A stretch of 20,000 nt of DNA. It comes from an uncultured virus (IMG/VR IMGVR_UViG_3300009155_000057). Taxonomy: Duplodnaviria > Heunggongvirae > Uroviricota > Caudoviricetes. Position 1 is the stretch's first letter; the number at the start of each line of letters is the position of its first letter. A program made the position numbers and the translations under genes. The notes under the pieces were generated by a model that saw only the letters and a list, made by a program, of their open reading frames with translations, was not told the DNA's origin and ran no database searches. Where the stretch lies: the IMG/VR virus record IMGVR_UViG_3300009155_000057; one strand, 5' to 3'. This document shows positions 3,209-20,000 of the stretch, in pieces.

Positions 3209-3284
3209 GGGTTGTTAGCTCAGTTGGTAGAGCGGCGGACATCAGGGCGCCACGTCGCAGGTTCGATCCCTGCACAACCCACCA
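3209..3284 (+). tRNA. tRNA-Lys-like body with aberrant anticodon arm (positional anticodon TCA)
   Basis: 76 nt with perfect acceptor GGGTTGT/ACAACCC, D arm GCTC-AGTTGGTA-GAGC, T arm and CCA. The anticodon region GGCGGACATCAGGGCGCC does not pair in the canonical register. Confidence 0.75.
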
Positions 3285-4583: not shown

Positions 4584-4666
4584 GGGATGCTAGCTTAATG
4601 GCAGAGCGGGCCCGTGGAGGCCCGTGGAGGGCCGAGATATAGGTTCGATCCCTATGCATACCCACC
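4584..4666 (+). ncRNA. tRNA-like RNA or pseudo-tRNA with a tandem 10-nt duplication in the anticodon arm
   Basis: GGGATGC/GCATACCC (bulged), GCTT/GAGC D stem, CCCGTGGAGG x2 (4611-4630), ATAGG-TTCGATC-CCTAT. Confidence 0.65.
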
Positions 4667-5846: not shown

Positions 5847-5922
5847 TGCAGGTTGGTGAAGTGGCCTACCACGAGCGGGTTCATACTTGCTTTATTCATC
5901 GGTTCGAATCCGATACCTGCTA
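5847..5922 (+). tRNA. tRNA-Met(CAT), anticodon arm out of register by 1 nt
   Basis: TGCAGGT/ACCTGCT, AGCGGG-TTCATA-CTTGCT, ATCGG-TTCGAAT-CCGAT. Confidence 0.75.
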
Positions 5923-5927
5923 CCGCT

Positions 5928-8399: not shown

Positions 8400-8431
8400 T
8401 GAGGGAAAGGAATTAACGTTCCTTTCCCTCA
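8400..8431. terminator. Strong hairpin at the convergence of the tRNA array and the minus-strand gene
   Basis: TGAGGGAAAGGAA-TTAACG-TTCCTTTCCCTCA, 13-bp perfect stem. Confidence 0.7.
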
Positions 8432-9397
8432 AGCTAATTCACACATCACAATAGCTGTAACTGAAGTGTTGCTAAACAAGTCTTTAACAACCTCATCAGG
8501 GTATAGTTTATCCCAAATTTCATTTTGTTTTTTAAATTCTGGCCCGCTAAGATCAAATGATCGATTTAAAAGATTGAATTTGACAGCTGTTATTTTTAGA
8601 TTTTTCCCCATAATAACTTCAGATTCATCATAATTGCTCGCCGCTGAAACATCGCTTCCATAAAGACAATCTTTAACTTTGAGAATGATTGCACAATCTT
8701 GGTTACTGTCAGCAGCAAATTGTTTTGCTGTTTGTCCATCGGTTGTCCAAGAAGAAATTGGAAAATTCTTAAATTGAATTCCTGCTTTTAAATTCATGCC
8801 TACAGCTTCTGTCAATCCAATTCCTCGATAAAGATTTTGTGGTCCCATTCTGTTTTTGGTTTGAGCAGCAAATTGCAAAATTTTCTTTGCGTTTCTATAA
8901 TCTTCTCTAGTAGGCATAATTTCTTTATATGGGCTGTCATTGTGCTTAATTGCCTGAGATTGCCAACTTTCATACCCTGAAGGCTTTCTAATAGTGCTAA
9001 CACTTCCTGACGTGAATAAAAGAAATGAATAAAAAATAGAAGCAAGATTAGCGTCTAGTTTTTCATTTTTCTTATAGCCTGTTGAATACCAACGGTTGAC
9101 ATCGTCATTAACATAAGTTGAGATGGCATCATAAAAGTCTCCTTTGTCGGAGTCCAGTTTATTGTAAAAATAATCAAACATTTCTTCGGTTGGTTCTTTA
9201 ACTTTAATCAAAGCTTCGTTTACGCTTCTAAGAAAAGCTGGAATAGATTTTCCGTTGAAGCGTTTTGTAGATAGCTCTTTATAAATTGCCAAAGCAACAT
9301 TGGAAGTTGATGAAGAAAGATCGACATTACGTTCAGAAAATCTAAATTCTTTTAGCAATCGATTCAAAATTCTGATTTCAAGATTTTCATTTTTCAT
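8429..9397 (-). CDS. Putative mono-ADP-ribosyltransferase (R-S-E / VIP2-like C-terminal domain)
   Basis: LYRG, FPISSWTTD..AKQFA and ESEV occur in the expected order and spacing. Likely start MKNENLEIRILNRLLKE (the ORF track extends to 9424). Confidence 0.7.
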   Translation of the reverse strand: MKNENLEIRILNRLLKEFRFSERNVDLSSSTSNVALAIYKELSTKRFNGKSIPAFLRSVNEALIKVKEPTEEMFDYFYNKLDSDKGDFYDAISTYVNDDVNRWYSTGYKKNEKLDANLASIFYSFLLFTSGSVSTIRKPSGYESWQSQAIKHNDSPYKEIMPTREDYRNAKKILQFAAQTKNRMGPQNLYRGIGLTEAVGMNLKAGIQFKNFPISSWTTDGQTAKQFAADSNQDCAIILKVKDCLYGSDVSAASNYDESEVIMGKNLKITAVKFNLLNRSFDLSGPEFKKQNEIWDKLYPDEVVKDLFSNTSVTAIVMCELA

Positions 9398-9443
9398 AAC
9401 TTTAATTATTTCAAAAAACGCCAACTAATATTTTTTTGCAAGT

Positions 9444-10159: not shown

Positions 10160-10654
10160 ATGCCTCGTCCAAATGATGTCGGCGTCGGAACTGCTTGTAT
10201 CATCTACAAGGTTATTGGCCGTAAATTTCAAGTTCTTCTCATGAAGCGTCAAGGCGCTCATTGCGCCGGCCAGTGGGCTGTTCCTGGAGGTTGGCTCGAT
10301 CGTCCTGATGAAACGACTTCGGGGGCGGTTTGCCGCGAGGTTGCAGAAGAGACGGGAATCACCCTTGAAGAGTCCAAGGTCCATCACTATCAATGGACTA
10401 CTGAAGACCATCCAGATATTGGTTGCCGCAGCGTGACTTTGTATCATACTACCCAAGTGCCGCCCGACCAGGTGCCGCAAATCATGGAGCCCAATAAGTG
10501 CACCGAAATGCGCTGGGTAGGTTACAGTGAATTGCTTGAATTTGTAAAAAGCGAGCCCATTTTTCCTGGACTTGCCAGAATTCTAAATGATTTTTGCTAC
10601 GGACTGAGCATGGTGATCATTCATGCTCCAGAAGAAAGTGAAAGCGAAGAGTAG
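10160..10654 (+). CDS. Nudix hydrolase (MutT/NUDT15-like)
   Basis: WAVPGGWLDRPDETTSGAVCREVAEETG Nudix box; PQIMEPNKCTEMRW. Confidence 0.9.
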   Translation: MPRPNDVGVGTACIIYKVIGRKFQVLLMKRQGAHCAGQWAVPGGWLDRPDETTSGAVCREVAEETGITLEESKVHHYQWTTEDHPDIGCRSVTLYHTTQVPPDQVPQIMEPNKCTEMRWVGYSELLEFVKSEPIFPGLARILNDFCYGLSMVIIHAPEESESEE

Positions 10655-15170: not shown

Positions 15171-15383
15171 ATGACTGTTAAAGATCTAATCAAGAAGCTT
15201 AAAGAATATGATGATGACACTATTGTTACCGTTTGTGAATACAGCGGATCAGAAGATCTTTATCGCAAAATAAAATTCATTGAAAGAATGATCTACACAG
15301 GAAACGCTTCTGATAAACTCAAAAAGAAGTTGAAGAACCACACTCCTGGCGCAATTTACCTAACCGCATTTGAGAGAGGATAA
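15171..15383 (+). CDS. Small hypothetical phage protein
   Basis: AAGGAGG RBS; MTVKDLIKKLKEYDDD N-terminus typical of small phage proteins. Confidence 0.75.
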   Translation: MTVKDLIKKLKEYDDDTIVTVCEYSGSEDLYRKIKFIERMIYTGNASDKLKKKLKNHTPGAIYLTAFERG

Positions 15384-15885
15384 AGCGCTTTTAACGTCCC
15401 CTGACATTCTTGGTCATGATGACTACTTCATTCGCAGAATTTTTCTTGCAGGTTCCATTGAAAATGAAAAAGCAATTGATTGGCAGGCCGACCTTTATGA
15501 AAAGGTAATGAAAGGTCTTACGAAAAATAATCGTGAAGATTTGTTTAATGAAAGTGTTGTCTTCTTTAATCCAAGACGAAAAGAATGGAATCCAAATGCA
15601 AGTGAAAAAGAACTGACGACCCAAATTAATTGGGAGCTTAGTCACCTGACCGAGTCAAATATCGTTTTCTTTTTTCTTGCAAAGGGAACGATTAGCCCAA
15701 TTTCTCTCCTTGAGCTTGGGTTAATGATTCGCACCAATAAAAAAATCATTGTTGTGTGTGAAGATGATTATTTTCGCGCAACGAATGTTAGTGAAACTTT
15801 AAGATTCTTTAGAAATCAATTTGTGTTTTCAACTCTAGAAGACGGAATTAATGCTCTTATTAAAGAAATTTCATTGGAATTGTAA
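15370..15885 (+). CDS. Nucleoside 2-deoxyribosyltransferase-like protein
   Basis: IFLAGSI, FFNPRR, QINWEL, SPISLLELG motifs. Confidence 0.85.
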   Translation: MREDKALLTSPDILGHDDYFIRRIFLAGSIENEKAIDWQADLYEKVMKGLTKNNREDLFNESVVFFNPRRKEWNPNASEKELTTQINWELSHLTESNIVFFFLAKGTISPISLLELGLMIRTNKKIIVVCEDDYFRATNVSETLRFFRNQFVFSTLEDGINALIKEISLEL

Positions 15886-16752: not shown

Positions 16753-16845
16753 GGAAGGTTACCGAAGTGGTCATAACGGCGGCGCCTTGAAAGCGGATGA
16801 GCCCCGAAAGGGGGTCCGTGAGTTCGAATCTCACCGCTTCCGCCA
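16753..16845 (+). tRNA. tRNA-Ser(TGA), with stem mismatches
   Basis: GGAAG/CTTCC-G73-CCA, CT TGA AA loop, long variable arm CCCC-GAAA-GGGG, perfect T arm. Two mismatches each in the acceptor and anticodon stems. Confidence 0.82.
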
Positions 16846-16912: not shown

Positions 16913-17953
16913 ATGACTAAGTATGTGTTTGTAATCGGTCGGTTCCAGAATTTCCATATCGGCCATCAGTCTCTTCTTGAGACTGCCTCTCTCCATGGAG
17001 AGAAGCTGGTCGTGCTTGTTGGTAGCGCAAATGCTCCAAAGAGCATCCGAAACCCATATACATATTCCCAGCGTGCCAAGGTGCTGAAGGCCGCCGGCTA
17101 TGAAAATGTGTATCCTCTAAACGATTACCACAATGACAATGTTTGGGTGTCCCAGGTAAAGGCTCTCATCGCGTCCATTACGAATGGACAGTCTTATTGC
17201 ATTGCGGGTTCGAACAAGGACGAGTCTACATACTACCTCAACATCTTTGGTGATGTGAAGGTTGTTCAAATTCCACAGTTCTTCCTTGATGGCGGCGAAA
17301 CTGTGAATGCGACCAAGTTTCGAAATGCAATGTTTGCAGGTTTTAGCAAGGGTTGTTGGTCTACTGAGTGTGAAAAGTATCAATCGACTTCCATGAAAGC
17401 AAACCATCTCCTCATGGAGCAATTTTCTTATGTCGCTCCCAGCCTCATTGAAGAATGGCGGCATGTCAAGGAGTACGCAAAGCTGTGGAGCGGTTCTCCA
17501 TTCCCTCCAATTTTTGTGACTGCTGACAACGTTGTTTGTCATCGTGACAAGTTTCTCGCCATTGTGCGAAAGGGTCATCCGGGTCGAGGCCTATACGCTC
17601 TTCCTGGTGGATTCATTGATGAAAAGGAAACTATTCGAGCTTCCGCGCTGCGGGAACTTCGGGAAGAGACGAGTATCGAAATCTTCAACTCCCGAAGTGG
17701 ATCAAAGATTCCTTTCCAGAATGAGTGGTTCATCAAGTCTCAGGTCTTTGATGCTCCAAGTCGTTCTATTCGTGGTCGCACAATCACGCATGCCTTTCAT
17801 TGGAAGATTCCTGACACTCTTAATGTGAGTATTGCAGCCGCCGATGATGCTGCTGATGCTCTTTGGATGCCTCTTACTTACCTTGACGATCCAATGAACA
17901 TGGCAACTTTCATGGAAGATCACTTCAACATCATCAAGACAATGGTCCTTTGA
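16913..17953 (+). CDS. nadM: Bifunctional NMN adenylyltransferase / Nudix hydrolase (NadM-Nudix)
   Basis: IGRFQNFHIGH, VGSAN..RNPY, PFPPIFVTADNVV, ALPGGFIDEKET...LRELREET, RSIRGRTITHA, AADDA, EDHFNII. Confidence 0.95.
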   Translation: MTKYVFVIGRFQNFHIGHQSLLETASLHGEKLVVLVGSANAPKSIRNPYTYSQRAKVLKAAGYENVYPLNDYHNDNVWVSQVKALIASITNGQSYCIAGSNKDESTYYLNIFGDVKVVQIPQFFLDGGETVNATKFRNAMFAGFSKGCWSTECEKYQSTSMKANHLLMEQFSYVAPSLIEEWRHVKEYAKLWSGSPFPPIFVTADNVVCHRDKFLAIVRKGHPGRGLYALPGGFIDEKETIRASALRELREETSIEIFNSRSGSKIPFQNEWFIKSQVFDAPSRSIRGRTITHAFHWKIPDTLNVSIAAADDAADALWMPLTYLDDPMNMATFMEDHFNIIKTMVL

Positions 17954-18460: not shown

Positions 18461-18490
18461 ATGCAACCACACCATAAATGGTGTTATAAT
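18461..18490 (+). promoter_or_regulatory. Promoter ATGCAA-N18-TATAAT (extended TG)
   Basis: Recurrent motif with a consensus -10, upstream of NAMPT. Confidence 0.65.
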
Positions 18491-18523
18491 AACTAAGTGG
18501 ATGGCTGATGCCAACCATCGAGG

Positions 18524-18555
18524 GCCAGCCGCGTAAAAACTGGTAACAAAAGGAG
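18524..18555 (+). promoter_or_regulatory. Candidate compact NAD+-II-like riboswitch (SD-sequestering pseudoknot)
   Basis: GCCAG-CCGCGTAAAAA-CTGGT-AACAAAA-GGAG directly upstream of the NAMPT ATG. Confidence 0.45.
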
Positions 18556-18561
18556 ATAAAA

Positions 18562-20000
18562 ATGTCGTTCCCTGTTCCTAATATGCTTCTCAACAACAGT
18601 CGCAATATGGTTCCTTTCCTTCTTGATACGGATACCTACAAGGCGACCCATCACTTTCAGTATCGTGATGGCATCGATGAAATGACCGCCTATTTCACTT
18701 TCCGCGGTCCTCTTCGTCGCGAAGATAGTCGTATCGTCGTCTGCGGCTTGCGGTATGCCTTTGAAAACATTCTTCTTCGCCGGATCACTCAGCGTGATAT
18801 TGACGAGGCCGAGGCCTATCTTGCTCATCATGGTGTGATGGGTGGTCGAATCGATTGGCCGAAGGACCTTTGGCAGGATATCGTCGACACCAACGATGGT
18901 CGTCTTCCTTTCAAGGTTGAGGCCCTCCGCGATGGTGAGGTCATCTATCCTGGCGTCCCGGTCTTCACCATCACTGGCACTGGCAAGTATGCCAAGTTGA
19001 CCACTTGGCTTGAAACCTCACTCATGCGAATCTGGTCTCCAAGCGTCACGGCCACCAAGAGTCGCCACGTTCGTGGCATGATTCAGGAATACTTTGACAA
19101 GACCGTTGATTCCAACAGCTTCTTCCTGCTTCCTTCTCGATTCCACGATTTCGGTTCTCGAGGCGTCTCCTCGGCCGAGACTGCCATGACGACTGGTATT
19201 GGTCACCTTCTGTCCTTTGACGGAACTGACACGATGACTGCTGGTTGGCTTGCCACAACTTGGAACAACGGCGTCGGGGTTGGCGAAAGCGTCATCGCCA
19301 GTGAGCACTCGGTCATGACCACTCATCAGGACGAGCTCACCGCTGTTCGTCACCTGATTTCGAAGACTCCGACTGGCCAGATTCTCAGCTGTGTTGCCGA
19401 CTCGTACGATTACACGAATTTTGTGTACAACATCGTCCCGCAGATTGCTGATGAGGCAAAGGCAAAGGGCATCGTTTTTGTTCTTCGTCCTGATTCTGGT
19501 GACCCCGTTGAGGCGGTTCTTACCGGTCTTGATGGTCTCTCCAAGGCCTTTGGTTATGTCACCAACAGCAAGGGTTACAAGGTCATCACTGGTGCTGCGG
19601 TCATTCAGGGTGACGGCCTGACGATTGAAAAGGTTGAAGATATCCTCCACGAGGTGGCGGCTGCCGGCTACTCCGCGCAGAATGTTGCCTTCGGTATGGG
19701 CGGCGGCCTCCTACAGTCCCAGACTCGAGACACCATGAAGGCTGCAATCAAGGTCTGCTCCATCACGGTGAATGGCACCACACTTCCTATCATGAAGAAT
19801 CCTAAGTCCGATTGGAGCAAGGCGAGCTTGCCTGGAAAGTTGCAGGTGAACAAGGTTGCCGGAATTCCAACGATTTATCCTTCCACCAGTGTTCAGTGGG
19901 ACGATTATCGAAACGAGTTCAACATGCTTGAGACCATTTACGACAATGGTCCGACTGCCTGGAAGCCCGAAACTTTCCAGCAGATGCGTGATCGTCTCAA
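18562..20000 (+). CDS. nadV: Nicotinamide phosphoribosyltransferase (NAMPT), 3'-truncated by the window end
   Basis: Hand translation gives LDTDTYKATH, FHDFGSRG, ASEHSV, VADSYD, LRPDSGDP, VIQGDG, FGMGGGLLQ..RDT. AAGGAG RBS. Absent from the ORF track because no stop occurs in the window. Confidence 0.95.
   Translation, partial: MSFPVPNMLLNNSRNMVPFLLDTDTYKATHHFQYRDGIDEMTAYFTFRGPLRREDSRIVVCGLRYAFENILLRRITQRDIDEAEAYLAHHGVMGGRIDWPKDLWQDIVDTNDGRLPFKVEALRDGEVIYPGVPVFTITGTGKYAKLTTWLETSLMRIWSPSVTATKSRHVRGMIQEYFDKTVDSNSFFLLPSRFHDFGSRGVSSAETAMTTGIGHLLSFDGTDTMTAGWLATTWNNGVGVGESVIASEHSVMTTHQDELTAVRHLISKTPTGQILSCVADSYDYTNFVYNIVPQIADEAKAKGIVFVLRPDSGDPVEAVLTGLDGLSKAFGYVTNSKGYKVITGAAVIQGDGLTIEKVEDILHEVAAAGYSAQNVAFGMGGGLLQSQTRDTMKAAIKVCSITVNGTTLPIMKNPKSDWSKASLPGKLQVNKVAGIPTIYPSTSVQWDDYRNEFNMLETIYDNGPTAWKPETFQQMRDRL

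Follow-up and report, generated by a model that had tools for sequence, protein, structure and literature searches.

The leader of a NAMPT (NadV) gene from a family of lake phages carries, judged by sequence comparison, a pseudoknot that is real and uncatalogued and is best read as a cis-regulatory element of the phages' NAD-salvage genes, a candidate for translational control tied to NAD status. The gene stands at the end of the window (the whole stretch of 20,000 nucleotides that was analysed), which itself forms the last part of a 78-kb virus record with an estimated completeness of 41%. The features are listed in Table 1, and core positions are counted from 18519 as position 1. The NAMPT gene named by the first-pass annotation of this DNA starts at ATG 18562 and was borne out by the two Pfam families NAMPT_N and NAPRTase.

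Table 1. Features of the window that bear on the leader and its genes
Feature	Position	Strand	Remarks
NMNAT-Nudix (NadM-Nudix) gene	16913..17953	+	Pfam; partner in NARP2-type pathway; leader without the motif in the window
Extended -10-like box TGnTATAAT	18482..18490	+	Found by eye and regex; absent from sigma-70 scan
P0, 5' hairpin adjoining the core	18497..18518	+	-10.4 kcal/mol; equalled by 0/60 shuffles; shape kept, sequence free
Conserved 28-nt core	18519..18546	+	H-type pseudoknot in positions 1-25
Stem S1	18519-23 with 18529-33 (18519..18533)	+	Four Watson-Crick pairs around fixed A(18521)-G(18531) mismatch
Loop 1	18524	+	Single purine
Stem S2	18525-28 with 18540-43 (18525..18543)	+	Two compensatory pairs in L129; one end pair broken in L128
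Loop 3, UAAAAA	18534..18539	+	Invariant; same loop follows S1 in tmRNA PK1
Shine-Dalgarno (SD) AGGAG	18551..18555	+	Outside the knot; 8-10 nt 3' of core position 25 in 10/10 copies
NAMPT (NadV) gene	18562..20000, runs past window end	+	Pfam NAMPT_N PF18127 and NAPRTase PF04095; phrog_448, E 5e-114; best solved relatives are NAMPTs

The pieces from which the earlier reading had been assembled, namely GATGG (18500-04) and CCATC (18515-19), GCCAG (18524-28) and CTGGT (18540-44), an 11-nt loop (18529-39) and a tail (18545-55) with the SD before the ATG, are all present at these places. The letters of the proposed 5' hairpin GATGG/CCATC are thus there, although the predicted pairing runs in another register, as P0. 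The pair that closes P0 immediately 5' of core position 1 can be formed in 10/10 copies, and just five of the ten copies beat all but 0-2 of 60 shuffles. The promoter that had been proposed was recovered as an extended -10-like box by eye and by regex but was not listed by a sigma-70 scan. The same box is found 28-29 nt 5' of the core in the loci L125 and L127, and the putative transcript start would lie near 18496-98; in L128 a TATAAT stands 3 nt 5' of the core, and an RNA initiated from this box would begin within the core. The distance from core position 25 to the start codon is 18-23 nt in all copies. The folding energy of the leader as a whole (18491-18564) is unremarkable (z -1.87; 8/200 shuffles as good), and with the knot locked, nested folding gave no consistent change in SD accessibility once the coding sequence was included.

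Core positions 1-5 pair with 11-15 and positions 7-10 with 22-25; the result is an H-type pseudoknot in which loop 1 is a single base and loop 2 is absent. This topology was proposed before the divergent copy L129 was inspected. Three distinct cores are known in all, and the covariation comes from one sequence, L129, which differs at seven positions. Six of these changes form three compensatory pairs, one in S1 (pair 5-11, G-C to C-G) and two in S2, and the seventh turns the junction pair 10-22, otherwise G-C, into a broken A.C, C22 being invariant. The probability of such compensation by chance is 4e-5 to 1.4e-4 for changes at random positions and 0.013 when they are limited to the nine variable positions. 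The other three pairs of S1 never vary, and the A3-G13 mismatch is retained in 10/10 copies. By itself each stem has little stability (-2 to -3 kcal/mol or less); loop 3 probably lies in the minor groove of S1 as a tertiary contact. The stem GCCAG/CTGGT of the first-pass annotation is real, as two of the compensatory changes show, except for its outer pair, and the general claim of a pseudoknotted cis-element tied to NAD-salvage genes has held, the element being conserved and the knot supported by compensatory pairs. A leader peptide was considered as well and rejected, as judged by eye, since the short frame through the core changes residues in L129.

In the closest IMG/VR relative (77% amino-acid identity) an identical 28-nt sequence precedes NAMPT and again the NMNAT-Nudix gene. 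These are the only two strong copies of the motif in the 102 kb of this relative, both before NAD-salvage genes, and the 78-kb contig of the window has one. The second copy stands before the NMNAT-Nudix orthologue in L020 and L131, so that two of the four NMNAT leaders read have the motif, those of the window and of L128 being without it. Among 15 metagenome NAMPT loci, the core was found in all eight at ≥72% identity (one of which, L124, is 100% identical to the window protein over the 213 residues queried, while L125 and L126 share one leader) and in none of the seven at ≤60%; among 80 viral NAMPT loci it was found in just one, that of the IMG/VR relative. In a 19-row NAMPT tree all eight carriers fall on one side of a branch supported at 100/100 (stem branch 0.65), and none of the 11 rows outside has the core. 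The core is identical at 28/28 positions where fourfold sites are identical at 91/202 and 21/48 (44-45%; binomial P about 1e-10) and where the 20 nt upstream of it agree at 2/20; it is still identical at 25/28 and 21/28 positions where fourfold sites are 30% identical. By these comparisons the core is under strong selection. A lack of conservation in nadV leaders, which the first-pass annotation had named among its refuting conditions, was not borne out, the core being kept in the leaders of one NAMPT clade.

Several alleles show how the surroundings of the core change. L134 (upstream of 2046) has a NAMPT near-identical to that of the window (38/38 fourfold sites), but its upstream region is another one and its 5' hairpin is longer and unlike that of the window; core and gene travel together. 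A further sequence variant of P0 occurs in a freshwater metatranscriptome contig, presence in an RNA library being no proof of transcription. Freshwater metatranscriptome contigs of a close allele keep the promoter side and the SD and have other sequence at both ends of the leader (18502, 18551); one contig has another sequence directly 5' of the SD and another a different leader start. The leader of this allele may have been swapped or may carry an insertion.

Rfam gave no significant match for the leaders of the window, of L129 and of L020, L128 and L131. Degenerate core scans of IMG/VR returned 2, 5, 8 and 36 matches, two of which were real each time, always both copies of one relative; in a further scan of this kind 2/19 matches were the copies of the same relative and 15 others lay inside long ORFs. 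There was no core match in GTDB, and a looser pattern matched there 18 times, never with the four tested pairs, an SD and an NAD gene together; such database patterns match only where S1/loop-3 or S2 is preserved almost letter for letter, and a bacterial family that had diverged would escape them. By blastn, INPHARED and PLSDB held no match over more than 80% of the query. The remaining 79 viral and seven metagenome NAMPT loci held no copy by either a motif model or a pseudoknot descriptor that ignores sequence, and 41 genomes of one bacterial phylum yielded no convincing copy.

Judged by gene content, the pair of NAMPT and NMNAT-Nudix fits NARP2 as outlined in the accessible part of 10.1101/2024.02.11.579819, because a match to the Adps family (PF14572) is absent from the virus record of the window and from its relative, fragments of 41% and 31% estimated completeness. 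The record thus combines NAMPT and NMNAT without Adps. According to the same part of that source, unregulated NARP2 overproduces NAD+ at a cost in PRPP. The surrounding region has some features of its own. ARAGORN called 25 tRNAs in the window, three of them with irregular anticodon loops (3209-3284, 4584-4663 and 5847-5924). Directly 5' of the NMNAT-Nudix gene lies a sequence (16754-16845, + strand) that resembles a tRNA-Ser(UGA) whose variable arm is long, and which was missed by ARAGORN and by the Rfam gathering score, its 3' half alone scoring weakly; it is a degenerate or unusual tRNA. An ORF of 331 aa (8429-9424, - strand) runs against the local gene direction and weakly matches a phage RNA polymerase ADP-ribosylase family (phrog_832, E 5e-4); a NAD-consuming enzyme at this place would add a second reason for NAD salvage. 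A nucleoside 2-deoxyribosyltransferase-like gene (15370-15885) and a second Nudix gene (10160-10654) are found in the same region. Distant relatives of the window NAMPT (44-46% identity) include proteins labelled as from chytrid fungi and amoebae.

The tentative first choice is a cis-acting RNA switch, read by a metabolite, through which translation of the NAD-salvage enzymes would follow the NAD status; a metabolite-locked knot is ranked first because the stems are weak, the junction has the layout of NAD+-II and unregulated NARP2 is costly. The transcript would start at P0, which would stack on a marginally stable pseudoknot of the PK1 type (A-G mismatch, second stem of 3-4 bp). A nicotinamide-containing metabolite would bind at the stem junction (purine 10 and invariant C22, which correspond to the NMN site of NAD+-II in PMC10085692) or at the mismatch and lock the knot. 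For the sign of the response, the somewhat less favoured form of this reading is ON, in which nicotinamide or ADP-ribose would lock the knot and so protect the mRNA. The somewhat more favoured form is OFF: given the extent of the 30S footprint, a rigid knot at its 5' edge would lower initiation when NAD+ or NMN is plentiful. The metabolite reading is supported by the conserved core, its topology, its restriction to NAMPT and NMNAT-Nudix leaders, the fixed distance to the ribosome site and the mismatch that stands where tmRNA PK1 has a Watson-Crick pair. Against it stand the missing SD-pairing platform, the little room for a pocket in a knot of 25 nt that has a single base in loop 1 and lacks loop 2, and the NAD+-II contacts that are not jointly present; the changed pre-SD sequence of the metatranscriptome allele, the absence of the motif from the NMNAT leaders of the window and of L128, the TATAAT of L128 and the origin of the covariation in one sequence count on the same side.

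The likeness to NAD+-II can be specified from the crystal structure, in which NMN sits next to G33:C46, where the A5 strand ends, and between C5:G34 and G6; any one of the mutations C5U, G33A and C46U is enough to abolish the complex (PMC10085692, accessible part). The order of P1, purine, A5 strand and invariant C opposite a purine, as given there, is repeated in the phage RNA, where UAAAAAC (the A5 strand after P1, then C) is invariant in 10/10 copies. NAD-pathway genes, an H-type core, a purine after the P1 5' strand and a C opposite a purine just 5' of the P1 3' strand are likewise shared with NAD+-II, as far as the available parts of PMC7749635 and PMC10085692 describe it. On the other hand, the pseudoknot of NAD+-II includes the SD, whereas the phage knot closes 8-10 nt 5' of it; the equivalents of C5/G33/C46 under the probable mapping are G/G/C in 9/10 copies and C/A/C in L129; and the conserved CAAAAGGAG 3' strand occurs in 2/10 phage copies, where it does not adjoin the A5 strand. 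The phage RNA also differs in having neither P1a nor the 2N4 core, in its extra 5' hairpin and in its source, phage as against Streptococcus. The phage RNA may work like NAD+-II site 1 without being a member of that class, because the order of elements is the same yet the site-1 equivalents are G/G/C or C/A/C.

Close behind metabolite reading comes a translational operator read by a protein, which is possible at a slightly lower level of belief. In the simplest form the phage NAMPT (or NMNAT-Nudix) would bind its own leader in a ligand-dependent manner and block the 30S subunit by its bulk; T4 gene 32, thrS and PyrR are precedents for operators read by proteins. Such an operator would explain why a platform for pairing with the SD is missing and why the spacing is held at 18-23 nt, and the core contains a purine-purine mismatch, a common feature of protein recognition. 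The motif always accompanies one NAMPT clade (8/8, support 100/100) but only two of four NMNAT leaders, a pattern which shared ancestry alone can explain. Proteins of the carriers' NAMPT clade are also less acidic, with net charges of -2 to -8 (n=11) where the others have -7 to -21 (n=23), and basic residues peculiar to the clade occupy four positions (35, 96, 142 and 415); habitat may account for the shift in charge, and leaders were read for part of the 11 proteins. To our knowledge there is no RNA-binding NAMPT or NadM, which counts against an operator of this kind.

Another known RNA resembles the core in its letters. A weak Rfam alignment (E 1.1, not significant) placed the core on pseudoknot 1 of tmRNA (PK1; RF00023), and the comparison was extended to bacterial tmRNA loci (11 fetched, nine tried, seven parsed). 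Over S1 and loop 3, 15/16 positions are equal in three of the seven tmRNAs, the fixed A-G mismatch being the sole difference, and 10-13 in the rest. Both RNAs have a 5-bp S1 of the CG-x-G type, an A-rich loop 3, a short S2, a helix directly 5' (helix 2 in tmRNA) and a short distance before a reading frame. They differ at the central pair of S1, A-U in tmRNA, where a Watson-Crick pair is found in 7/7, and A-G in 10/10 phage copies; the phage knot has no loop 2 and a shorter S2 and stands alone in an mRNA leader with an SD. For a full tmRNA (tRNA-like ends, tag frame, PK2-4) no match above the cut-off was obtained in the record of the window or in the relative, and ARAGORN called none in the window. 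The likeness may be due to convergence, which is possible because knots of compact shape, with contacts between loop and stem, are met repeatedly among frameshift signals (PMC1149493, accessible part), or perhaps to descent. A PK1-type scaffold explains most of the invariance (S1 and loop 3), whose weight as evidence for a pocket is lowered in this way; it leaves unexplained why the mismatch is fixed, why C22 never changes opposite a purine that does, why S2 is short and why the element is confined to certain genes.

On this likeness, with its 15 equal positions, rests the improbable proposal that the knot is a constitutive structural element which, behind its 5' hairpin, shields the mRNA from 5'-dependent decay or aids ribosome loading without sensing anything. 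It agrees with the description of PK1 as mainly a stabilising module, replaceable by a hairpin (PMC3968760, available part), and with the ability of a compact guanidine-III knot to block RNase E scanning (PMC12186494, available part). A general stabiliser would nevertheless not be expected at just two enzymes of one pathway, nor would a destabilising mismatch be kept in 10/10 copies. Guanidine-III offers, in the same portion of PMC12186494, a model of a compact ligand-locked knot acting through mRNA stability, although it has no sequence match to the phage RNA and belongs to different genes. The type I preQ1-I riboswitch, which acts by indirect SD occlusion in the accessible part of PMC11625349, is likewise a small H-type knot with an A-rich loop 3 near the SD; the phage RNA differs in having AG or GA instead of UC/AC before the P1 3' strand and no UU after the 5' strand. 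Rfam gave no preQ1-I match at E≤10, and the genes are NAMPT and NMNAT, with no queuosine genes.

The mechanism favoured by the first-pass annotation, a miniature NAD+-II riboswitch whose loop CC would pair with the SD on binding of NMN or NAD+, has been largely refuted and is now very improbable. Mini-NAD+-II riboswitches are compact H-type knots on NAD genes; the gene context fits, and the tail of the window equals the NAD+-II 3' tail. That A-rich tail, ACAAAAGGAG, is however found in 2/10 copies, the SD lying 8-10 nt from the knot. The loop CC has its partner in the core's own 5' GG, and position 11, a G in L129 and unable to pair there with the SD, covaries with position 5 and not with the SD. 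CGCG, which had been taken as a mark of the class, occurs in neither of the two strands from which ligand-bound NAD+-II lacking P1a is assembled in the available part of PMC10085692. The ribosome-binding-site pseudoknot, the 3' strand and P1a of NAD+-II are wanting in the phage RNA, and the site-1 nucleotides that the crystal structure defines for this parent class are never jointly present. A CCGCGT-plus-tail pattern had 15 matches in IMG/VR, none of which, as judged by eye, precedes a NAMPT or NMNAT gene. Least probable of all is a DNA operator or recombination anchor in place of an RNA: the core and NAMPT of L134 are kept despite another upstream region, but the core is not palindromic, and compensatory changes in both stems together with a hairpin kept as a shape argue for RNA.

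No description of the phage element was found in the accessible literature, which mostly leaves out subscription papers, and nothing on the regulation of NARP2 by phages was found there. The words 'riboswitch', 'nicotinamide' and 'NAD' are absent from the main text of Fremin et al. (PMC10690425), and the motif is absent from six of its supplementary files (files 1, 2 and 4 lying outside the search); an 11-mer of the core had four matches in full texts, all unrelated. Phage-encoded riboswitches as such are mentioned in the available part of PMC9004378.

The leader can be regarded as a 50-nt candidate control element for the costly NARP2 pathway. If it is read by a metabolite, it would be a minimal NAD-pathway riboswitch in a phage, and if by a protein, the reader would be an RNA-binding NAD-salvage enzyme; either would be new. 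Given the likeness to tmRNA PK1, a housekeeping RNA module may here have been turned into an aptamer or operator. A more specific and rather unlikely form of the metabolite reading combines these points: a 25-nt aptamer built on, and perhaps derived from, tmRNA PK1 by one pair-to-mismatch change would sense NAD status, possibly through nicotinamide or ADP-ribose from NADase immunity, so that counter-defence enzymes would be made only when the host destroys its NAD+. Were this aptamer reading true, the phage RNA would stand for a new class of riboswitch, below preQ1-I in size, and would be an RNA that senses bacterial immunity.
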